64,000 nucleotides of DNA from Candidatus Gottesmanbacteria bacterium (GCA_016186795.1 JACPKY010000002.1:925892-989891); one strand, 5' to 3'. Positions 5,004 through 63,149 are shown, counted from the first letter of the stretch. Notes: generated from the sequence alone by a model not told the origin. Numbers and translations are program-made.

Positions 5004-7070
5004 TTATGGAGTCGATGGTGTTGGAGAGGTTATAGGTGCAGGTGACGCTTGACTTGGTTCTGGTTTAGTTGGCGGTGGAGATTGTGGGAATTGGACGTTA
5101 CTTTCAAGCGTTACAGATGATTGTAACGATTGAGGTTCAGAAGTTTGTTGAGTTTCATAGGATGTTTCTTGAGTTTCCTGAGGTTTGGATGTAGCAAGAT
5201 GATGTTCCTCAGATGAAGCAATGACTTGTATAGCAGCATGGGCAGTTCCGGCAAAGAAGAGTCCTTCTCCGACGTTTGCAGAAAGCAAGAAATGCTTTTC
5301 ACCACTTGAGAGGTAGAATACCTCAGCAAGTTTATCTATCGCTGCAGACGATTGTTTAAGGAGGATTTGTAAACTGGAATTGGTGATGATTGCTTTCCCA
5401 TGATCGGTTGAGAGAAAATCTTCCACATCCTGAGTGATGGTTGTTACCCCCAAGAAATATTTTCTTGCCCGTTTGGCAATGCCATAGAGAAAGGTTGCAG
5501 AGTCTGGGTGTTTCATAAGATACCACGCCTCATCAACAACGAGGATACGCTTCTTAACCGACCGTTTTATCTTGGTCCAGATAGAGTCTAGAATAATATA
5601 CATTGCAATTGGACGAAGCTCTTCCTCAAGTTCACGGATGGAAAAAACAGTTAAACGATTTTTCAAGTTCAGATTGGACTGTTGGTTAAATATTCCCGCA
5701 AGGCTTCCTTTGACGAATTTTTCCAACCGTTCCGCTAAATGTTTTGCCGTTTCTTCCTCCATTCCAAGGAGTGTTTTATATAAATCTTCAATAAGGGGCG
5801 GTTCATTTTTTTGCGTTGCCGGATCTGGAGTAATACCTTTCTGTTTGTAGGTAAGGACGAGCGCTCGATCAAGGAGAGCATCTTCCGCAGGGGTCAGTTG
5901 CCCCATGACGACTCGCATCAGGCCGTGGAGGGAAAGAATTTTTAGTCCTAATTCATTTTCTCCCTCCTCAAAAATTCCCGAAAGGTCGAAAGGGTTAATT
6001 TTTACAGGAGAAGTAAAGGAAAATTCAATAAGTTCTCCACCAAGAGCGCGTGTTAGCTCCTTGTATTCACCTTCAGGATCGATAATAAACACCTCTGTTC
6101 CAAAAAGAAGATGCCGCATCGTTTCAAGTTTGACAAGAAAACTTTTTCCGCCACCAGATTTACCAAAGACTACTGAGTTTGAGTTTTCCAAACTAAAGCG
6201 GTCAAAAATAACCAAACTTCCATCATGTTCGTTAATACCGTATAAAATTCCTTCGTTGGCAGTAAGAGATGCTGTTGTAAAGGGAAACGTCGTTGCAAGA
6301 GATGTAGTATCCATGTTTCTGGAAATCCCAAGCTTGTCAACCCCCATGGGGAGTGTTGAGTGGAAACCATCTTCTTGGGAAAGTGTTGCGTGTTTTGGGA
6401 TAATGAGGAGCGCTCCAAGACTTGATTCAACTTCCTTTGAAATGCGGCTTAATTCCTCCATTGATTCTCCTGGAATAGTGACATAGAGACTAAATTGGAA
6501 AAAACGTTCAGCGCCTTTTGCAAGTTGCGCCTGAAGCGCAAGGGCATCATCAAGGGCTACTTGAACCGAAGGATCAACAACTTTCCCCCTCTTCATGTCG
6601 GTTTGGACCGTTGCCTCCATCTCGGCAATTTTCCGCTTCAGATCTTCAAGGATAACTTTTGACTCCGTCGGATAACAAAACATTGAGATAAAAAGGGAAT
6701 GGTCAAACGAGAGAATCGGATGGAGCCAATTTGCTGAAACAAACCGCGGATAGCCCGCGACAAAAAGAGTGCGGTAATAACTATTATTTATTCGAATATT
6801 GTCAAAATCTACCTCAACAAGAGATGGAGCAATGAGGTCTTTAATATTCACCATTCCTTTGGCGAGTGTTTTTGCTGCGTCACGGAGTTTCGTATTCTGC
6901 GCTTGTCCTACCGTTCCTACGACGTGACTTACAGCGTGAGGAGTAGTAGAGTGTGAAACAGGTGGGACATGTGAAGTAATAGGTTTTTGTACAGATCCAC
7001 TCTGAATTGGATGCGGCAGTTGTGTTGTTTGAGTCGGTTGTGGTTTTTTGGAGAAAAACGGCAAATTCAT
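5004..7070 (-). CDS. VirB4/TraE/PrgJ-like type IV secretion (conjugation) ATPase
   Basis: Walker A VVFGKSGGGKSFLVK, Walker B ILVVDEAW, length and domain order of VirB4/CagE/TrbE-family ATPases. About 110-aa Pro/His/Thr/Ser-rich N-terminal leader. Confidence 0.8.
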   Translation of the reverse strand: MNLPFFSKKPQPTQTTQLPHPIQSGSVQKPITSHVPPVSHSTTPHAVSHVVGTVGQAQNTKLRDAAKTLAKGMVNIKDLIAPSLVEVDFDNIRINNSYYRTLFVAGYPRFVSANWLHPILSFDHSLFISMFCYPTESKVILEDLKRKIAEMEATVQTDMKRGKVVDPSVQVALDDALALQAQLAKGAERFFQFSLYVTIPGESMEELSRISKEVESSLGALLIIPKHATLSQEDGFHSTLPMGVDKLGISRNMDTTSLATTFPFTTASLTANEGILYGINEHDGSLVIFDRFSLENSNSVVFGKSGGGKSFLVKLETMRHLLFGTEVFIIDPEGEYKELTRALGGELIEFSFTSPVKINPFDLSGIFEEGENELGLKILSLHGLMRVVMGQLTPAEDALLDRALVLTYKQKGITPDPATQKNEPPLIEDLYKTLLGMEEETAKHLAERLEKFVKGSLAGIFNQQSNLNLKNRLTVFSIRELEEELRPIAMYIILDSIWTKIKRSVKKRILVVDEAWYLMKHPDSATFLYGIAKRARKYFLGVTTITQDVEDFLSTDHGKAIITNSSLQILLKQSSAAIDKLAEVFYLSSGEKHFLLSANVGEGLFFAGTAHAAIQVIASSEEHHLATSKPQETQETSYETQQTSEPQSLQSSVTLESNVQFPQSPPPTKPEPSQASPAPITSPTPSTP

Positions 7071-7747
7071 TATGTAATCCTTCCTAATCCTTCAACGAGC
7101 GGTTTGCCGTATCCTGAAATTTCTCCCAATTTTTCACCTGTCATTGTTGGGTTGTAGAGGTTGTAGAAGATCTCGACAAGCTCTTGTGTCGTAAGTTGTC
7201 TTCCTCGTAGCCCAAACCGATTCAACTGTCGTAGTAAATGATCACGTTTCGGCAAAAGTGATGTTTTTGCACGAGAAAGGATATAGTCTTTGGAAAAAGG
7301 AAGTTTTTTCTTCTTTCCAAATGCCCCTTTTACTCCCAGTTCTAAACTTGAGAAGGAGATGACGATATAAAATCTTTTTTCCAATACTCGGTTTTCTTTG
7401 ACAATTGAGAGGATAAATTCCTTATACCGACGAAGCCTTTCTTTCAAAATAACGTCAACTTGAGTTTCTTCGACCTGAGTTATCAGCTCAATATACGAAG
7501 AAATATCCATCCGCTTGGAAAGAATGACAATTTGAAGAGGAAAAGAGAGAGAGTTCAAAAGCGATGCATAGGCGTAAATAAGCGCATCCTGCTCATCTTC
7601 AGAAAGAAGGCCAAAGTTTACCGCAGTTGTTTCGACAAGAAGCGCCGCGGATCCATCTTGAAGTATAAGAATATCATCGGCGATATCCTCTATTCCTAAA
7701 AAATCTTGTGTTGTTGCTCGAATTGGACTGGAGGTTGGTTGTGCCAT
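7070..7747 (-). CDS. VirB4 N-terminal-domain-like protein (possible split-off N-terminal module of the conjugative ATPase)
   Basis: DFLGIEDIADDILILQDGSAALLVETTAVNFGLLSEDEQDALIYAYASLLNSLSFPLQIVILSKR resembles the conserved N-terminal region of Gram-positive VirB4 homologues. Its stop overlaps the ATPase start (ATGA). Confidence 0.45.
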   Translation of the reverse strand: MAQPTSSPIRATTQDFLGIEDIADDILILQDGSAALLVETTAVNFGLLSEDEQDALIYAYASLLNSLSFPLQIVILSKRMDISSYIELITQVEETQVDVILKERLRRYKEFILSIVKENRVLEKRFYIVISFSSLELGVKGAFGKKKKLPFSKDYILSRAKTSLLPKRDHLLRQLNRFGLRGRQLTTQELVEIFYNLYNPTMTGEKLGEISGYGKPLVEGLGRIT

Positions 7748-7815
7748 ATATATATTATGAAAACTCGCTACACAAAACTCAAATGGCTGGTTATAAATTG
7801 CGGATTTGAGATTTC

Positions 7816-9123
7816 TTACGAATTTACGCTCCCAAATAGTTCTTTTGTGAGTTTTTCGCGCATGAGTTCACGTTCACCCTTTGCCAGGATTTCAATTGGA
7901 GGGAAAATGTTCCCCGAAAGAGTAATTTCAGCGATATCAAAAAAGTACCGCTTCAACGGATCTTCCATTTCCAAATGATATACGCCGTTTGACAATGGGG
8001 TTGCAGTAGAAAACTGGCCAAGCTTATTGGTTTTAAGTGCCCGAAGCGGTGTTCCGTTTTTGTCTTTAATGGTGACAATAATATTGGGAAGGAATTTTTT
8101 CTGCGGATCCTGAATGATCCCCACAATCATATTTGGGTATTGAGGGAAAGTCGCACCGATTTCTTTGGCTGTTGACGTTTGGGCGATCGTTTGGATTGTT
8201 GGTGGTTTTACCTCTTTCAACGCTGTTGGTGTCACAACTTCTGGCTGTTTGAGTTTTGCCAATTCTTCATGGAGACGTTTCAGTTCATTTTCTAGCGCCT
8301 CTTTCTCTTTTGCAATTTGATCCCACTTTTTTTGATAATTTTCCTTCCCCACCATAGGTGCAGTGTTTGTTAGAGGTGGTGAAACAGGATGTGTTTGGGC
8401 AATTGGTGTGGTACCGGCAGATGCAGGGACAGGAGGTTCTTGTGAAGGTTTTTGAGGTGTGGTATTTGGCGATGGCGCAATTGTGCTCTTTTGGGGTGAT
8501 GGACCGATAGGTACGTTTGATTGCAGTTTTTGACTAGGTGCTGAAAGAATTGTTTTGGGGACAGCATGTATTTGGTGAGGTACGGTGTGTGGTCGGCTAG
8601 CAATAACTGTATGAGTGCTGGAAGTGTTGGTATGAGGTTGTGGACCAAAAAGAGAAAGCGTATTTTCAAGATATTTTTTTTCAGCAAGGTTGAGATTTTC
8701 GTGTGGTTTTGAAGGGACAGTTGCCAGATACGCGGCTAGTTTTGATTTCGCTTCATTATGCTGAATGAGGTGTGTTGTGTTTGTGACCTGAATTCTGACA
8801 ACCGATGGTTGAGAAAACATATCGGCAATGATACTTTCCTTATGCCAGAGGTATTGTGTTGGAGAGAAGATGCTTCGTATGAAAGCCAAAAGCCATTTAT
8901 CAAGCGGTCGTTCCTGAATTGGGAGAAACGCAAATGCGACACCGCAAAACCCAAACAGGGCAGCGAGGGGAATATTTATAATCTGTGGAAGCGGTGAGAG
9001 ACGAAAGGTGACATACGCGATGAATGCGCCGCCGGCAAGATATCCGAATTGCCGAAGCGTCATGTCACCGATGAGGTGAAACTCAAAACTTGAAATGTTT
9101 CGAGGGACAGGATGTTGCTCCAT
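7816..9123 (-). CDS. PrgI-family (VirB3-like) membrane protein with a long C-terminal extension (Pro-rich linker, coiled coil, beta-sandwich-like domain)
   Basis: N-terminus FEFHLIGDMTLRQFGYLAGGAFIAYVTF...PLDKWLLAFIRSIF with two hydrophobic helices matches the PrgI-family pattern. First gene of the operon with VirB4. Confidence 0.5.
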   Translation of the reverse strand: MEQHPVPRNISSFEFHLIGDMTLRQFGYLAGGAFIAYVTFRLSPLPQIINIPLAALFGFCGVAFAFLPIQERPLDKWLLAFIRSIFSPTQYLWHKESIIADMFSQPSVVRIQVTNTTHLIQHNEAKSKLAAYLATVPSKPHENLNLAEKKYLENTLSLFGPQPHTNTSSTHTVIASRPHTVPHQIHAVPKTILSAPSQKLQSNVPIGPSPQKSTIAPSPNTTPQKPSQEPPVPASAGTTPIAQTHPVSPPLTNTAPMVGKENYQKKWDQIAKEKEALENELKRLHEELAKLKQPEVVTPTALKEVKPPTIQTIAQTSTAKEIGATFPQYPNMIVGIIQDPQKKFLPNIIVTIKDKNGTPLRALKTNKLGQFSTATPLSNGVYHLEMEDPLKRYFFDIAEITLSGNIFPPIEILAKGERELMREKLTKELFGSVNS

Positions 9124-55835: not shown

Positions 55836-56020
55836 TATCCAAAACTGGATACAATTAGTTCCCATCTGTTTTCACACGTACTCAAGTGTTTCCTCTTACT
55901 ATAATTATCTTGAAAAAAGTTATATCTTTTTTTGCATTTGAGGCTAGTTGCAAAAGTGCTATGAAGTGATATACTTTGTTCTCTTGACAGGGTGTATGTA
56001 GGGTCTTACTATGATTGAGG

Positions 56021-56036
56021 ACACTATAGATAGAGT
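56021..56036. promoter_or_regulatory. Candidate NrdR box ACACTATAGATAGAGT, 60 bp upstream of nrdR
   Basis: 14 of 16 match to the approximate consensus ACACwAwATwTwGTGT. A weaker ACAC...GTGT 16-mer at 55874-55889. Confidence 0.3.
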
Positions 56037-56096: not shown

Positions 56097-56543
56097 ATGA
56101 AGTGTCCTTACTGTACAGGAGCTGAGACAGAGGTTATTGAAACCCGAGATAGTGATGATCTGGGTACAACAAGGCGGAGACGTGAGTGTGCCAGTTGTTC
56201 GAAGCGATTTACAACATACGAAAGGGTTGAGACGGTGCCAATCATCGTCATGAAGAAGGATGGGAGGAAAGAGCAGTTTGATCGTGACAAGTTAAAACAT
56301 GGGGTTTTGAAAGCGTGTGAAAAAACAGTTGTTGGCATTGAAGATATCGATCGAATTGTGGATGAGGTAGAGCGGGAACTTCGAGGTTTTGACAGTGTTG
56401 AAGTGGATAGTAAAAAAATCGGACAGATGGTTGCAATGCGACTTAAGAAAATTGACAAGATTGCCTATATCCGTTTTGCGTCAGTTTTCCGGCGTTTCGT
56501 CGACCTTGAAGATTTTGAGAAGGAGTTACAGAAATTGTTATAA
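56097..56543 (+). CDS. nrdR: Transcriptional repressor NrdR
   Basis: MKCPYCTGAETEVIETRDS...RRRECASCSKRFTTYE zinc ribbon plus ATP-cone. 148 aa. Confidence 0.9.
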   Translation: MKCPYCTGAETEVIETRDSDDLGTTRRRRECASCSKRFTTYERVETVPIIVMKKDGRKEQFDRDKLKHGVLKACEKTVVGIEDIDRIVDEVERELRGFDSVEVDSKKIGQMVAMRLKKIDKIAYIRFASVFRRFVDLEDFEKELQKLL

Positions 56544-56584: not shown

Positions 56585-59500
56585 ATGAAACTTTCAGGAA
56601 TCCGCCAAACCGTTTTCCTTGACCGATATTCACTCAAAGATGAGAAAGGAAATCCAGTTGAGAAAACTCCAGAACAGATGTGGAAAAGGGTCGCTCACGG
56701 AATTAGTCAGGTGGAAAAATCGAGCGTACAGAAGTATTGGGCGGAGAAATTTGAGAGTATCATGCAGGATTTTAAATTCGTTCCTGGAGGGCGGATCCTT
56801 TCGGGAGCAGGGACTGGGTACAACGTAACATTCTATAACTGCTTTGTTATTCCTTCTCCAAAAGATTCTCGCGAGGGCATTTTAGATACCCTAAAACAAA
56901 TGGTTGAGATTATGGCACGAGGAGGAGGGGTAGGAATTAATCTTTCATCACTGCGTCCCCGAGGGGCACGTGTCAAAAAGGTAAATGGGTTTTCCTCAGG
57001 CCCTTGTAACTGGGCAGAACTTTTTTCTGTTGCGACCAAAGATATCATTCAACAGGGTGGAACACGAAGAGGAGCTCTCATGCTCATGCTCTGGGATTGG
57101 CATCCGGATGTTGAGGAGTTTATTACAGTGAAACGCGACCTTTCCCGGATAAACGGTGCCAATCTTTCAGTATGTGTTTCTGACAAATTCATGGAGGCAG
57201 TGAAAAAAGATGACGACTGGCAGCTTTATTTCCCCGATACAAATGATCGTGAGTATGATACCAAGTGGGAAGGGTATATGGATGAGTGGCTCAAGATGGG
57301 GAAGAAAGTAAAAGTTTTCAAAACAATTAAAGCCCGGAAGCTGTGGGATCTTATTTGTGAAGCAGCGTGGGCTTCTGCAGAACCTGGTGTTGTTTTCATG
57401 GAGCGGTACAACAAATGGTCGAACAATTGGTATTTCAACAAAATAAACTGTGTCAATCCGTGTGTCACTGGAGATACGTTGGTCTCCACAACGAATGGAT
57501 TACAATCTATGCGGAAATTGTACGAGATTGGAAAGCCATTTAGAGTTGTTGTCGATGGGAAGAATTATCTATCTACCCATGTAAAACATACAGGAGTAAA
57601 ACCTGTATATCGATTGAGAACCCGTGAGGGTTATGAAATGAAATTAACAAATGACCATAAAGTCATTACGGTAAATGGTAAAAAAGAAGCAGATGAACTT
57701 GTTTCCGGTGATAAAATTTTACTCTCACATGGAGGATCATTTGGAGTAACAGGGAATATAGAAGAAGGGAACGTATTAGGATGGCTTGTTGGCGATGGAA
57801 CAATGAAAAAGGATGTGGCGACTCTTTTCTTTTATCATAATGAGAAACAGGAATTAGCACCTCAATTTGCCTCTATGGTGGGAAAAATGGTTGAAGGAGA
57901 GGGTGTCACGCAGAGGATGTATCCAATTTTCCCTCAATATATTGAGAAAGAAAATAAGGCAGTTGTTGAATCAGTTAGACTTTGGAGGATAGCATATCGA
58001 TATGGAATAACACATGAAAATAAGTATATCGTGCCAGAACAAGTATTTGGAGGATCGGAAGAATTTCAACGAGGATTTTTGCAAGGTCTATTTTCAAGTG
58101 ATGGTACGGTAATAGGTACACCAAATAAAGGCGTGAGTGTTCGTCTTACCTCTGTGAGTTATTCTCTTCTTATCGGAGTACAGCGGTTACTTCTCAATTT
58201 GGGAATTCTAAGTAAAATCTATAAAAAAAGAAGGACAGAATCAAATCGTTTATTGCCGGATGGGCGAGGTGGGAAGAAATCATACTATTGTCAGGCATAT
58301 CATGAACTTGTTATCTCAAAAGTAAGCTTAATACGGTTCGCAGCTCTAATAAATTTTCTTCAGGACAATAAGAAGAATAAACTTGCTTCATTACTCTCAC
58401 TTTATGGACGGGGACCCTACAAAGAATCTTTCATGGCAACATTCTCTGCGTTGGAGAAGGATGGAGTTGAAGAAGTATTCGATATAACTGTTGCTGATAT
58501 TCATCGGTTTTCCGCAAATGGACTTATCGTATCTAACTGTGGTGAAGAGGGTCTCCCTGCATGGGGTGTATGTAACCTTTGTTCAATAAATCTTGCAGCG
58601 CTGGTGAAGGATGGGAAGATTGACTACAAGGAACTATCTGATATTGCAAAGGTTGGCGTTCGATTTCAGGATGACATTATCGATGCCGATTCCTACGTTT
58701 TCCCCCAAATTCGGCAAGTTCAGCAAAACGGAGAAAGGCGTATTGGTCTTGGAACAATGGGTCTTGGCGATGCGCTTATTAAAATGAAGTTGCGCTATGG
58801 TTCACCTGAGTCACTTCGAGAAATTGACAAGATTTATAAAACAATTCGAGACGCAGCATACGAATCATCGGTTGAAATCGCAAAAGAAAAAAGTCCGTTT
58901 CGAGAATTTGACGCTAAAAAACACCTCAAAGGGCATTTTATAAAGCGGCTTCCCAAAAAGACCCTTACAGCCATAAAAAAGTGGGGAGTGAGAAACTCTG
59001 TTCTTCTTCAACAAGCCCCAACCGGTTCAACGTCGCTTCTTGCTGGAGTTTCCTCAGGAATCGAACCAGTCTATGAGTTTTCGTTCGTCCGCCGTGACCG
59101 CTTGGGTGAACACACGCTGTATCATCCACTCTATGAAGAGTGGAAAAAATCTCATCCGAATGATCCCGTTCCTCCCTACTTTGTTTCAGCCAACGATTTG
59201 ATACCCGAAGATCATGTACGGGTACAGGGTGCAATACAAAAGTACGTTGATGCATCGATTTCTAAAACCGTGAACGCTCCCAACAATCATACTATTGAGG
59301 ATGTGCGGAAACTCTACACTCTCGCATATGAGTTAGGATGCAAAGGGGTGACATATATGCGAGAAGGAAGTAGGCCTGGAGTACTTGAGCGAATTCCTGA
59401 AAAGAAAGATGAGAAAGAAAGTGTCCAAAAAGAGAAAGCAACACCAAACGGAAACGGTCATTTGCCGGTTCGTGAAGAGATTATGCCAAGGCCAATGATG

Positions 59501-60016
59501 GTAGCTGGTGCAACATATCAGATTGATACACCTGTTGGGACTGCGTTTGTGACAATTAATACTGATGCCAACAATCAACCACTTGAAGTGTTTATAAATG
59601 TCGGTAAAGCAGGTTCTGATGTAACAGCGATGGCAGAGGCTTTGGGTAGAATTGTTTCACTTATGCTTCGCATGCAGTCAAGCGTTCCCGCATCAGAAAG
59701 AGCACGGCAAGTATTCAATCAGCTGATTGGTATTGGAGGATCAAAAGCGCTCGGATTCGGAGATAAGAGGGTGCGGTCACTTCCCGATGCTGTTGCGAAA
59801 GTTTTGGCAATGCACTATGGTTTTAAATTTAAAAATGGCAACGGAAATGGTCATCAACAAGCTGAGGGAAATCCACAAAGCGTACCAGTCTTAACACAGC
59901 AGTCACTTCCCGTAACGAAGATTGATTACGATCTTTGTCCATCATGCGGAGAGGCAGCTTTAGCCTACGAGGAAGGCTGCAAAAAGTGCTACAGTTGCGG
60001 ATACTCTGAGTGTTAA
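56585..60016 (+). CDS. nrdJ: Class II (adenosylcobalamin-dependent) ribonucleotide reductase NrdJ, monomeric type, interrupted by an intein
   Basis: RNR barrel motifs. NPC|GE active-site motif split by the intein. C-terminal CxxC...CxxC tail. Extein about 784 aa. Confidence 0.85.
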   Translation: MKLSGIRQTVFLDRYSLKDEKGNPVEKTPEQMWKRVAHGISQVEKSSVQKYWAEKFESIMQDFKFVPGGRILSGAGTGYNVTFYNCFVIPSPKDSREGILDTLKQMVEIMARGGGVGINLSSLRPRGARVKKVNGFSSGPCNWAELFSVATKDIIQQGGTRRGALMLMLWDWHPDVEEFITVKRDLSRINGANLSVCVSDKFMEAVKKDDDWQLYFPDTNDREYDTKWEGYMDEWLKMGKKVKVFKTIKARKLWDLICEAAWASAEPGVVFMERYNKWSNNWYFNKINCVNPCVTGDTLVSTTNGLQSMRKLYEIGKPFRVVVDGKNYLSTHVKHTGVKPVYRLRTREGYEMKLTNDHKVITVNGKKEADELVSGDKILLSHGGSFGVTGNIEEGNVLGWLVGDGTMKKDVATLFFYHNEKQELAPQFASMVGKMVEGEGVTQRMYPIFPQYIEKENKAVVESVRLWRIAYRYGITHENKYIVPEQVFGGSEEFQRGFLQGLFSSDGTVIGTPNKGVSVRLTSVSYSLLIGVQRLLLNLGILSKIYKKRRTESNRLLPDGRGGKKSYYCQAYHELVISKVSLIRFAALINFLQDNKKNKLASLLSLYGRGPYKESFMATFSALEKDGVEEVFDITVADIHRFSANGLIVSNCGEEGLPAWGVCNLCSINLAALVKDGKIDYKELSDIAKVGVRFQDDIIDADSYVFPQIRQVQQNGERRIGLGTMGLGDALIKMKLRYGSPESLREIDKIYKTIRDAAYESSVEIAKEKSPFREFDAKKHLKGHFIKRLPKKTLTAIKKWGVRNSVLLQQAPTGSTSLLAGVSSGIEPVYEFSFVRRDRLGEHTLYHPLYEEWKKSHPNDPVPPYFVSANDLIPEDHVRVQGAIQKYVDASISKTVNAPNNHTIEDVRKLYTLAYELGCKGVTYMREGSRPGVLERIPEKKDEKESVQKEKATPNGNGHLPVREEIMPRPMMVAGATYQIDTPVGTAFVTINTDANNQPLEVFINVGKAGSDVTAMAEALGRIVSLMLRMQSSVPASERARQVFNQLIGIGGSKALGFGDKRVRSLPDAVAKVLAMHYGFKFKNGNGNGHQQAEGNPQSVPVLTQQSLPVTKIDYDLCPSCGEAALAYEEGCKKCYSCGYSEC
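57461..58537 (+). mobile_element. Intein (359 aa) with LAGLIDADG homing-endonuclease domain inserted at the NrdJ catalytic cysteine motif
   Basis: Starts with Cys (CVTGDTLV), block B TNDH, LAGLIDADG motifs LGWLVGDGT and FLQGLFSSDG, ends ...LIVSN followed by extein +1 Cys (CGEEGL). Confidence 0.8.
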
Positions 60017-60020
60017 CCTC

Positions 60021-60566
60021 ATGGCAAGGCTAAAAATCTATACACGCACTGGAGATCGCGGACAAACATCTCTCTATGGTGGTAAGCGTGTCCCAAAAAG
60101 TCATTACCGTGTCAATGCGTATGGAACGATTGACGAGCTAAATAGTCTTTTGGGTATTGTGCTTTCCAAAATAGATGATGATCGTGTTCGGAAGTTTATT
60201 CATGGTATCCAACATGATCTATTTGTGATAGGTGGTCACCTTGCAGGAGCCAAAGTAGAGCTTGGAGTACTCAAAACACGAGTTGATGAGATGGAGAAAC
60301 TTATCGACTGGATGGATAGTAATCTTTCTTCTCTAAAATCATTTATTCTTCCTGATGGAACCGAGGCATCAACATTTCTTTTCTTTACGAGAGCCGTTGC
60401 CAGAAGAAGTGAGCGTGAGCTTGTTGCCCTTTCACTTGAAGAAAAAGTCGATGAGCGCGTTCTTATATATCTTAATAGATTATCCGATTTACTGTTTATG
60501 ATGGGAAGATATTTAAACTACAAAGCAAGTGTTGCAGAAACACCATGGAAGAGTAAAATAGAGTGA
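60021..60566 (+). CDS. PduO-type ATP:cob(I)alamin adenosyltransferase
   Basis: IYTRTGDRGQTSL N-terminus and the helical bundle pattern of MMAB/PduO adenosyltransferases. Confidence 0.8.
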   Translation: MARLKIYTRTGDRGQTSLYGGKRVPKSHYRVNAYGTIDELNSLLGIVLSKIDDDRVRKFIHGIQHDLFVIGGHLAGAKVELGVLKTRVDEMEKLIDWMDSNLSSLKSFILPDGTEASTFLFFTRAVARRSERELVALSLEEKVDERVLIYLNRLSDLLFMMGRYLNYKASVAETPWKSKIE

Positions 60567-60725: not shown

Positions 60726-63149
60726 ATGCCTTCTCGGGATGAGAGGGCTTTTTTTATGGTCGAAGCAATTGCACCAGGAGGTATTGGACCGGGAGGCGGA
60801 TACTCATGTGATTTTCAAGCTTCACTTGGAAGTGATGTTCTCATGCGTATGGGGAAGGAGCAGGCAATCCGTGGACAGGCATTGGATCTTGCAACGCTCC
60901 AAAGTGAGCATTTTGATGTTGATCCAATTGGATTGTACACCTTGAAAGTTGCTCAGGCGCAGTTTATGGACAAGGTAACAGGACAGGTGCGAAATGAGTT
61001 GACACTCATTTCTGATGATTTCGGCGGTGAGCCGTTGGGTGTTTGGACAGATGCTGGAGAGCATGGGACTGGGACGAAAGAGGAGTATACGCGACTTATT
61101 ACATGGGCAAATGAACTAGCCACAACTAACGGTGAGGCAACTCTTACATGGGTAAATCCTGGCGAAAAAAGACCGGATGGGAAACCAGAACATCGGGTGT
61201 TTGTTTTACGGAAGGAAGAAAGTGGCAAAGTGAACGGAGCAATGTATTCACTCAGTGGTTCAAGCGAGACTCTTACCTCATTTGCAAAAACGCTTGGATT
61301 TTCTGCAAACGAGTCACTTGTAAAACAACGGTTGTTACAAAAAGAAGATACCGGTAGTATCACCCACCAGGATGTGTATCGGGCTTACCAGTTAGTTTTA
61401 ACGCCTCAGGAGAGACAAGAACAGTCACAGTTTCTTGAGCGTTTTCGGAAAGAAGCAGAAGATGTTCCCGATGATATTCGTTGGGCGAAAATACGGCATC
61501 GGCAGGAGATTTACGAACATCAGCTCTCACAATATGAGGGAGAGATATCAGAAGCATTGGGAATTATCGCGCAAGGATTTAGTGCATTGCCGCAATATTT
61601 AGATAAGAACCTAGATAATCATCAGGAATCTGCGGAAATACTTCCCTACGATCTAGTAAGAGAATTGCCTCAGTCGCAAAAACTTCCCTCACGAGAAAAT
61701 ACGAACCTTTCAATTGAGTTTAACGATCAAAAAGTCCCTGAGTTTCCCTTAGAGCAAAAAGATAAAGGTGAATTAGTTGTGGTACAAAGTAAACAGGAAG
61801 AAAGTGTGGTTCCGGAAGAAACCCGCAGCATTTTTCCTCAAGAATTAAATACTTCTAAAACGGAAGACCTTCAGGATGATGCCGCTTCAGAGATTACCGC
61901 AATCTTTGTGTATTCACTACTTTTACTTGCGAGGGATACGGGGAGAGAAGATGAATCATCTAAAGTCATATATTTACCTCTTTTCGCTCCTACCGATACG
62001 TTGATGGAAGAATATTCTCTTAAAAGTGATTCATTAGCCGATAGGACATCTTTTGAACAAAGGGAAGAAAATACCCATGAGAGTAAGCTATCTCACAGTG
62101 ATGTTTTCGTGATTTTTGAAGATCTTCTTCTTTCCCCACAAGAGGATGAGGGAGTTGAAATTTCTGCCTCCGTCCTTTCTATTTTCGATGAGGTTTTTAC
62201 CGATGAGATTTCTGAAGAAGAAAAAAAAGGAGCGCAAATTATTTTGACAGATGAGAATATCCAGAAGTTTCAGATTATGTATGAGAAACTGCAAGAGAAA
62301 AGTTTCGTGCTACCAGAAGAAAATGGTAGAGAGGACACTGATGCGAAGGGTACGATTCTTCATACCTCTCATGATGAGATCAGCAAGCTTTTCGATATTG
62401 CAAAATCAACTGATATCCCAGAGCCGGAACGGTTACTCGCGCTTGTTTTACTCTACGAGAAAATGCAAGCAACTATTCCCGACGTAGACAGTAAAGACAA
62501 GGAAGATGAGAAAACTGTCTTCCCCCCTCAAAAAAAACTACTCGATCAACTTGATACGATGTACACGTTTTTCCGTACTGAAATGAATGCGTATTTGGAA
62601 AAGGCAGACCAGGCGATCACAGCAGATCTTGATATAACACTCTCTGATTTTTTGAAGGGCGTAACATTGGCTTTTGAGCTGTCAGAAGGAGAAAAACTAG
62701 ATGAGCCTCGCTTTCCTGAAGAGAAAGTTCTTCTCAAATACGTAGTTGCGATCTCTCTTCTTCGAATTCTTTCCGAGACCTCTGGGAAAAATTTCGGAAT
62801 GATCGATGGAAAAAGGGCAAAGTCTGATCCTCATTATATTGACCATGTCCTTTCCTATCTTCTCATTCTCGTTGAAATGCCCAAGGATTCCCGTGAAAGA
62901 ATTCTCAATCTTTTGGAACTTAATCCTTTGCACCATGCTTCGATTGGCAATTTTCCTCTTTTTTGGAAGCAGTCGGAAGAAACATTCTCAGGTATCGTTT
63001 TTGAGAATTCAATCTGGCTTTTACGCCAGCGCCTTCTCCATGGCTATTCACCAACAGCATACAGTTTCCCATCACATATGATTCTTTTTGACTACTTCCG
63101 GGATGTTTATCAACGTTTTCATGGAAGGAGTGTAAATTTGTATGAATAG
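60726..63149 (+). CDS. Hypothetical 807-aa acidic protein
   Basis: Long ORF. No recognised motifs. Confidence 0.4.
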   Translation: MPSRDERAFFMVEAIAPGGIGPGGGYSCDFQASLGSDVLMRMGKEQAIRGQALDLATLQSEHFDVDPIGLYTLKVAQAQFMDKVTGQVRNELTLISDDFGGEPLGVWTDAGEHGTGTKEEYTRLITWANELATTNGEATLTWVNPGEKRPDGKPEHRVFVLRKEESGKVNGAMYSLSGSSETLTSFAKTLGFSANESLVKQRLLQKEDTGSITHQDVYRAYQLVLTPQERQEQSQFLERFRKEAEDVPDDIRWAKIRHRQEIYEHQLSQYEGEISEALGIIAQGFSALPQYLDKNLDNHQESAEILPYDLVRELPQSQKLPSRENTNLSIEFNDQKVPEFPLEQKDKGELVVVQSKQEESVVPEETRSIFPQELNTSKTEDLQDDAASEITAIFVYSLLLLARDTGREDESSKVIYLPLFAPTDTLMEEYSLKSDSLADRTSFEQREENTHESKLSHSDVFVIFEDLLLSPQEDEGVEISASVLSIFDEVFTDEISEEEKKGAQIILTDENIQKFQIMYEKLQEKSFVLPEENGREDTDAKGTILHTSHDEISKLFDIAKSTDIPEPERLLALVLLYEKMQATIPDVDSKDKEDEKTVFPPQKKLLDQLDTMYTFFRTEMNAYLEKADQAITADLDITLSDFLKGVTLAFELSEGEKLDEPRFPEEKVLLKYVVAISLLRILSETSGKNFGMIDGKRAKSDPHYIDHVLSYLLILVEMPKDSRERILNLLELNPLHHASIGNFPLFWKQSEETFSGIVFENSIWLLRQRLLHGYSPTAYSFPSHMILFDYFRDVYQRFHGRSVNLYE

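Follow-up and report, generated by a model that had tools for sequence, protein, structure and literature searches.

In bacteria, only one protein family is richer in inteins than the ribonucleotide reductases (PMC4760082), and the most frequent intein site of these enzymes lies directly before the cysteine that carries the thiyl radical (Dassa et al. 2009, PMC2677866). On both counts the NP/CGE loop of these enzymes (the slash marks the point of insertion) is a homing hotspot, as the first-pass annotation of the DNA described here had put it. The InBase 'RIR1' alleles, contiguous inteins of class I and class II reductases that include widespread haloarchaeal and bacterial rir1 alleles (Soucy et al. 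2014), occupy this point. Here we describe an intein with the same insertion point and the same bipartite architecture in nrdJ, the gene of an adenosylcobalamin-dependent ribonucleotide reductase, of a Candidatus Gottesmanbacteria bacterium (GCA_016186795.1, JACPKY010000002.1:925892-989891). The whole stretch of DNA that was analysed, 64,000 nucleotides long, is called the window. Unlike other RIR1-site inteins, the window intein resides in a Gottesmanbacteria NrdJ, and the clade to which it belongs has serine or leucine, not histidine, at the penultimate position (G:6). We consider it highly probable that this is a class 1 LAGLIDADG intein inserted between the proline and the catalytic cysteine of NrdJ, that it splices by the route set out below with block F compensating for the missing histidine, and that its endonuclease is active.

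The insert is a run of 359 codons without a stop, in frame within the nrdJ open reading frame (ORF), and encodes CVTGDTLV...ANGLIVSN (Table 1). Taken alone, it matches the Pfam families Intein_splicing (E=2.8e-13, 50.4 bits against a cut-off of 35.8) and LAGLIDADG_3 (E=9e-23, covering intein residues 201–297). Pfam, AlphaFold2, Foldseek and an alignment to the Thermotoga maritima B12-dependent reductase (PDB id: 1xjk) all agree with the first-pass annotation in placing a LAGLIDADG intein here, and Cys1, TNDH, LGWLVGDGT, FLQGLFSSDG and an IVSN end followed by Cys, all of which it had named, are present. An in-frame removable insert, Cys1, the TNDH block, Asn359 followed by Cys at +1 and a HINT fold are the hallmarks of class 1 inteins, and the window intein has all of them; a penultimate His, highly conserved but no defining mark of the class because splicing is documented in its absence, is replaced by Ser358. 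The hallmarks of a homing endonuclease are likewise present, namely two motifs each with its Asp, an alpha-beta fold and a patchy distribution with empty sites. Judged by these sequence features, the insert belongs to the canonical class 1 inteins and carries a predicted two-motif LAGLIDADG homing endonuclease. Across 73 aligned family members the +1 Cys is invariant, and the terminal Asn is present in 71.

The boundaries of the intein are NP/C...N/CGE. The title of the first-pass annotation had split the motif as NPC/GE, a boundary that we rejected because the chemistry needs a Cys at position 1 and a terminal Asn, and because the register NP/C...N/CGE is common to every relative. The intein thus lies directly N-terminal to the active-site cysteine and is homologous to other inteins of the same site. 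Extein continuity, which the first-pass annotation had proposed as a check, holds: with the insert removed, the 784-residue product aligns without gaps to 1xjk, KINCVNPCGEEGLPAWGVCNL standing opposite KINSTNPCGEIGLSDYEACNL, and the spliced junction reads ...NCVNP-CGEEGLPAWGV.... This structure is also the best match of spliced NrdJ in the Protein Data Bank (E=1e-69). Cysteines of the spliced protein align with Cys134, Cys322 and Cys333 of 1xjk, and the NPCGE loop is kept. The +1 Cys falls opposite Cys322, which we take to be the thiyl-radical cysteine, while Cys134 and Cys333 presumably form the redox pair. NrdJ orthologs are named adenosylcobalamin-dependent ribonucleoside-diphosphate reductase in the databases, and homology places the host, NrdJ, among the class II (adenosylcobalamin-dependent) ribonucleotide reductases.

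Searching a database for matches to spliced NrdJ yielded the 120 closest proteins, consisting of the window's own protein (P0074) and 119 orthologs. As many as 116 of them are intein-free and have an uninterrupted NCVNPCGEEG, three (the window's own protein included) carry the window's intein family, and one has a different intein at the same site. The nearest intein-free ortholog, P0075 (781 residues), is 88% identical to spliced NrdJ over 100% of the length. Its extein, at locus L162, shares 76% DNA identity with that of the window, and the gene order FTR1-DUF5667-NrdR-NrdJ is common to both. The empty site of L162 matches the window flanks at 47 of 60 nucleotides and reads …AACTGCGTCAATCCT before and TGCGGGGAAGAGGGG… after the insertion point. 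A further cysteine occupies extein position −4 (57449–57451), in the C-V-N-P that precedes Cys1, and stands in C-x-x-x-C spacing to Cys1 and, in the spliced protein, to the active-site cysteine. It is a feature of the host and not of the intein, because intein-free orthologs also have it (INCVNPCGEEG).

The AlphaFold2 model of the intein, computed from an alignment of nine sequences, has a mean predicted local distance difference test score (pLDDT) of 91.1 and a predicted template modelling score (pTM) of 0.90. In a Foldseek comparison with the PDB, its top matches are inteins that bear an endonuclease, namely TliVMA (E=8e-21), PI-PfuI and PI-SceI. Of its two domains, the inner one matches I-DmoI (E about 3e-9, target TM 0.64–0.70) and the endonuclease domains of PI-SceI and PI-PfuI, and the outer one matches mini-inteins of Ssp/Npu DnaB and Mxe GyrA. 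PI-PfuI (1dq3), TliVMA/PhoVMA (7qsu, 7qst) and PI-SceI (1vde) share the HINT plus LAGLIDADG layout of the window intein (E of 8e-21 to 2e-13, TM of 0.55–0.64), but their sequence identity to it is 12–19%, and PI-PfuI and PI-SceI are larger (chains of 405–454 residues). PI-PfuI is an intein of the Pyrococcus furiosus ribonucleotide reductase. No intein of this allele turned up when solved structures in the PDB were searched by sequence, the best matches being DnaB mini-inteins (E=3e-11). The Mth RIR1 mini-intein of the commercial pTWIN vectors, in a provisional sequence, aligns better than any PDB intein, its identity being 39% in the N-terminal 93 residues and 46% in the C-terminal 35. Like the window intein, it presumably follows a Pro and precedes a Cys (positions −1 and +1), but unlike the latter it would be 134 residues long, lack an endonuclease and end in His-Asn.

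To survey the family at large, an alignment of nine full inteins was run against genomes, one for each species. Relatives of the intein are encoded in at least 559 genome stretches and in 347 viral-contig loci, and the loci detailed here are the best 80 of each. The best 80 genome loci come from Chloroflexota, Rokubacteria/Methylomirabilota, Acidobacteriota, Actinobacteria, Armatimonadota, many Halobacteria and the candidate phyla Levyibacteriota and Gottesmanbacteria. In all 72 genome loci that could be parsed, the intein sits at Asn-Pro/Cys-Gly-Glu, with 42–74% identity over residues 1–359; the parsed viral loci (local tblastn) are mostly at NP/C-x-E. Members from Halorubrum, Haloferax, Halococcus, Chloroflexota, Rokubacteria and other groups are 42–53% identical to the window intein over the full 359 residues, all at NP/CGE. 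The literature names the alleles rir1-b, -g, -k, -l and -m without flanking residues. The one with the broadest distribution is rir1-b, and this is probably the InBase letter for NP/CGE.

Several other arrangements were seen in and around this loop. Protein P0152 (Candidatus Gottesmanbacteria HY407_01405, 1164 residues) has at residues ~292–674 a different LAGLIDADG intein of 383 residues, also at NP/CGE. It is 33% identical to that of the window and ends in ...NGYVSLD/CGEE, with a C-terminal Asp instead of Asn and a penultimate Leu. Loci L062 and L073 (Chloroflexi / Aggregatilineales) and protein P0008 have members of the window intein's family at the same site that end in His-Gln instead of His-Asn. 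In the viral loci L127, L140 and L142, contiguous inteins are inserted one residue further downstream (…NPC/C…HN/SE…), which is the position of the NrdJ-1 split intein (Dassa et al. 2009, PMC2677866). Upstream of the intein of L019 (Ktedonobacteraceae), a 545-residue open frame that runs to the contig end starts with intein-like text (…GGCFGPDERIATDRG…), which suggests that this NrdJ may hold a second intein. Finally, six loci (L003–L006, L008 and L009) are in metagenome-assembled genomes (MAGs) titled 'uncultured Gammaproteobacteria bacterium', while their nrdJ exteins and inteins group with those of Gottesmanbacteria and Levyibacteriota; their taxonomic labels look unreliable.

Splicing of the precursor would begin at the bond between Pro(−1) and Cys1, which Cys1, aided by Thr63 and His66 of block B, would convert to a thioester. 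The +1 Cys, later the active-site cysteine, would take over the N-extein by transthioesterification. Asn359 would then cyclise and release the intein in spite of the absent penultimate His, most likely aided by two residues that block F has kept, His348 (F:13) and Asp341 (F:4), in the way suggested for other His-lacking inteins. An S-to-N shift would rebuild the NPCGE loop and give a workable enzyme.

Translation confirms the C-terminal dipeptide Ser-Asn, and so the absence of the penultimate His reported in the first-pass annotation stands. The interest attached to it was overstated, given that 20 of 135 unique family members lack this residue and that there are precedents in Npu DnaE and in the literature. 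A His further upstream, in block F, is proposed to be able to stand in for the penultimate one, and mycobacteriophage inteins have Gly, Lys or Ser at that position (Kelley et al. 2016, PMC5050341). Splicing or catalysis without a penultimate His is also reported by Chen, Benner & Perler 2000 and, for Ssp DnaE, by Sun et al. 2005. These inteins resemble that of the window in their non-His G:6 but have other hosts and other insertion sites. The split intein of Npu DnaE (4lx3, 4kl5, 2keq), which also belongs to class 1, has the same Ser-Asn-Cys junction: its C-terminal part, IntC (PDB id: 4lx3_B), ends in ...GFIASN and has the block F His (…ERDHNF…). Unlike the window intein, it is split, lacks an endonuclease, is hosted by DNA polymerase III alpha and shows only distant similarity. 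Few natural inteins splice as fast as Npu DnaE, so a Ser at G:6 does not preclude efficient splicing. Reductase inteins of Pyrococcus abyssi reportedly belong to the His-lacking cases as well (Kerrigan et al. 2009). The missing penultimate His is known natural variation and not a mechanistic puzzle.

Of the 73 aligned genome-derived members of the family, 60 have His at G:6, 10 have Ser, two have Leu and one has Ala. All 11 clade relatives with a readable C-terminus (L001–L004, L006–L009, P0002, P0125 and P0193) end in Ser-Asn or Leu-Asn. These relatives, all from Microgenomates-type candidate phyla, are 65–76% identical to the window intein and are labelled Levyibacteriota, Gottesmanbacteria or 'uncultured Gammaproteobacteria' MAGs, the last having exteins that resemble those of the other two. 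Ser at G:6 also occurs separately in Ktedonobacteraceae (L019), Pyrinomonadaceae (L038), Actinobacteria (L050) and viral loci. Among the 135 unique sequences, both F:13 and G:6 are His in 78, only F:13 in 19, only G:6 in 37 and neither in a single one (L148); thus, the block F His is retained in 19 of the 20 members without a penultimate His. A rule that the two histidines are never both lost is true for the 73 genome-derived members and is broken once, by L148, in the wider set, so it can be stated only as a tendency. The pattern fits the published idea of compensation by block F, and the window intein retains the His in question (His348).

A different view of Ser or Leu at G:6 is that it adapts the rate of splicing and that the intein gates the reductase post-translationally, for example by responding to redox conditions via Cys1 and the +1 Cys. 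In favour of this view, all of the candidate-phyla clade has the substitution fixed, although its members have diverged so far that synonymous sites are saturated, and the nucleophile at +1 is a cysteine of the active site of the enzyme itself. Moreover, changing a native non-His penultimate residue to His altered precursor accumulation in another system, where tuning was suggested (Kelley et al. 2016, PMC5050341). However, no feature of the sequence requires regulation, most close orthologs are intein-free, and the same substitution has occurred several times in the unrelated lineages named above, which fits near-neutral drift once the F:13 His is present. We regard adaptive tuning as distinctly improbable. 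Still less credible is its extension to the Microgenomates-type NrdJ intein as a regulator and not a pure parasite, with Ser or Leu setting the rate of the last step and making the maturation of a possibly sole reductase conditional.

It is very hard to believe that the intein is dead and the gene a pseudogene, or that faulty sequencing or assembly produced the Ser-Asn end. The penultimate His is indeed absent, and the related locus L001 (ENA ERZ1286166 contig_758, 5600–8948) is fragmented by frameshifts that split its intein-bearing nrdJ into three called genes. Those frameshifts, however, belong to another assembly and look like assembly indel errors rather than biology. The ORF of the window is intact over 1143 codons, all the other catalytic residues are present, Ser-Asn occurs in at least nine independent assemblies, and the intein matches the essential host enzyme in conservation.

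This conservation was assessed by comparing the window with seven clade members. Non-synonymous divergence is 0.21–0.29 for the intein and 0.25–0.32 for the extein. In the closest clade, amino-acid identity to the window is 65–74% for the intein and 65–72% for the extein; within the intein, it is 68–74% for the endonuclease part and 62–78% for the splicing part. The window intein very likely splices, because it appears to be constrained like the essential enzyme whose active-site loop holds it.

Several points weigh against the reading of the locus as a splicing intein that is aided by block F and remains mobile. The ratio of non-synonymous to synonymous substitution rates (dN/dS) between the window and the seven clade members is inestimable owing to saturation of dS, and purifying selection is therefore argued from the equal protein divergence of intein and extein and not from a ratio. 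A second reductase, if the genome has one, would relax selection on nrdJ. The association between the histidines at F:13 and G:6 (Fisher p=0.0135) is uncorrected for shared ancestry and has L148 as its exception. In work on the Mth RIR1 intein, Pro at −1 was reportedly unfavourable for the first step. Lastly, splicing, the role of His348 and DNA cleavage are all inferred.

The distribution of the intein bears on the state of its endonuclease. The closest extein (88% identity) is empty, whereas the closest inteins sit in exteins that are 65–72% identical to that of the window. The GC content at third codon positions (GC3) is 27.9% in the intein and 38.8% in the extein, which places the intein in the lowest 2% of same-size in-frame segments from the long ORFs of the window; in several relatives, the gap between intein and extein is larger still. 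The low occupancy among the closest proteins (3 of 120), the empty closest exteins and the atypical GC3 together favour horizontal homing by an endonuclease that would be active. The endonuclease domain is probably still able to cut nrdJ alleles that have no intein and to spread the intein by horizontal transfer.

The same distribution argues against an element whose splicing is intact and whose endonuclease is inactive, i.e. one that has been domesticated or is tolerated and is inherited vertically with no mobility. Similar divergence of intein and extein within the clade would follow equally from long co-inheritance and from homing, and decay does occur in the family, the first LAGLIDADG Asp being lost in one or two members. 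However, both of these aspartates are intact in the window intein, and its endonuclease domain is as conserved as its splicing domain. With the occupancy, the empty closest exteins and the GC3 atypical for the host added, we find the loss of endonuclease activity unlikely.

The intein, genuine and probably active, is on the whole an ordinary one: it was previously unannotated, but its family and its variation at G:6 are well known, and no insertion site in reductases is better known than the one it occupies. It has little importance beyond annotation and should hold no surprise for specialists. The database entry HYW55_06210 deserves a new label, that of an adenosylcobalamin-dependent ribonucleotide reductase with an intein. 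The clade offers a natural example of long persistence without a penultimate His while the block F His is kept, and it supports the existing idea of compensation. With its compact size and its Pro(−1)/Cys(+1) junction, the 359-residue intein could also be a test case for splicing beside proline.

Table 1. Features of the nrdJ locus, in window coordinates; fractions give conservation among aligned family members.
Feature	Position	Strand	Basis or conservation
nrdR (nrd-gene transcriptional repressor), directly 5' of nrdJ	56097..56543	+	Pfam Zn_ribbon_NrdR E=2.2e-17, ATP-cone E=2.9e-19
nrdJ precursor ORF, 1143 aa including intein	56585..60016 (stop codon included)	+	ORF list, Pfam
N-extein, 292 aa, end ...NKINCVNP (Pro at −1)	56585..57460	+	
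Intein, 359 aa, HINT splicing domain split around LAGLIDADG endonuclease domain	57461..58537	+	Translation, Pfam
Block A Cys1, predicted step-1 nucleophile	57461..57463	+	Invariant, 73/73
Block B TNDH, intein residues 63–66 (Thr63 = B:7, His66 = B:10)	57647..57658	+	Thr and His invariant, 73/73
LAGLIDADG motif 1, LGWLVGDGT, residues 106–114 (Asp112)	57776..57802	+	Asp in 71/73
LAGLIDADG motif 2, FLQGLFSSDG, residues 206–215 (Asp214)	58076..58105	+	Asp in 73/73
Block F VFDITVADIHRF (Asp341 = F:4, His348 = F:13)	58475..58510	+	F:4 Asp in 73/73
Block G NGLIVSN (Ser358 = G:6 in place of His; Asn359 = G:7)	58517..58537	+	
+1 Cys (tgt), predicted step-2 nucleophile, then NrdJ active-site cysteine	58538..58540	+	
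C-extein, 492 aa and stop, start CGEEGLPAWGVCNL, TSCPD domain and C-terminal Cys-rich tail	58538..60016	+	
PduO-type cob(I)alamin adenosyltransferase, directly 3' of nrdJ	60021..60566	+	Pfam Cob_adeno_trans E=7.9e-54

The precursor is identical to P0074, which NCBI lists as 'hypothetical protein HYW55_06210 [Candidatus Gottesmanbacteria bacterium]' and which is encoded on a contig of 1.118 Mb. The precursor matches the Pfam families Ribonuc_red_lgN, Ribonuc_red_lgC, TSCPD, Intein_splicing and LAGLIDADG_3, and the Ribonuc_red_lgC match (E=3.8e-119) extends over precursor residues 85–925 and bridges the insert. With nrdR upstream and a cobalamin adenosyltransferase gene downstream, the context of the host gene fits an operon for a B12-dependent reductase. 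The NrdR-NrdJ gene order is also found in L001 and L162, and a cobalamin adenosyltransferase gene also neighbours nrdJ in L001.

Two further features flank these genes. Just 3' of the adenosyltransferase gene, the + strand encodes an acidic protein of 807 residues (60726–63149) with no Pfam match. On the other side, a search for NrdR boxes gave a count of matches that is not above chance; one NrdR-box-like palindrome, ACACTATAGATAGAGT (56021–56036), has two mismatches and is plausibly positioned 60 bp upstream of nrdR. It follows a promoter-like TTGACA-17 bp-TACTAT pair, and the two elements together span window positions 55985–56036.

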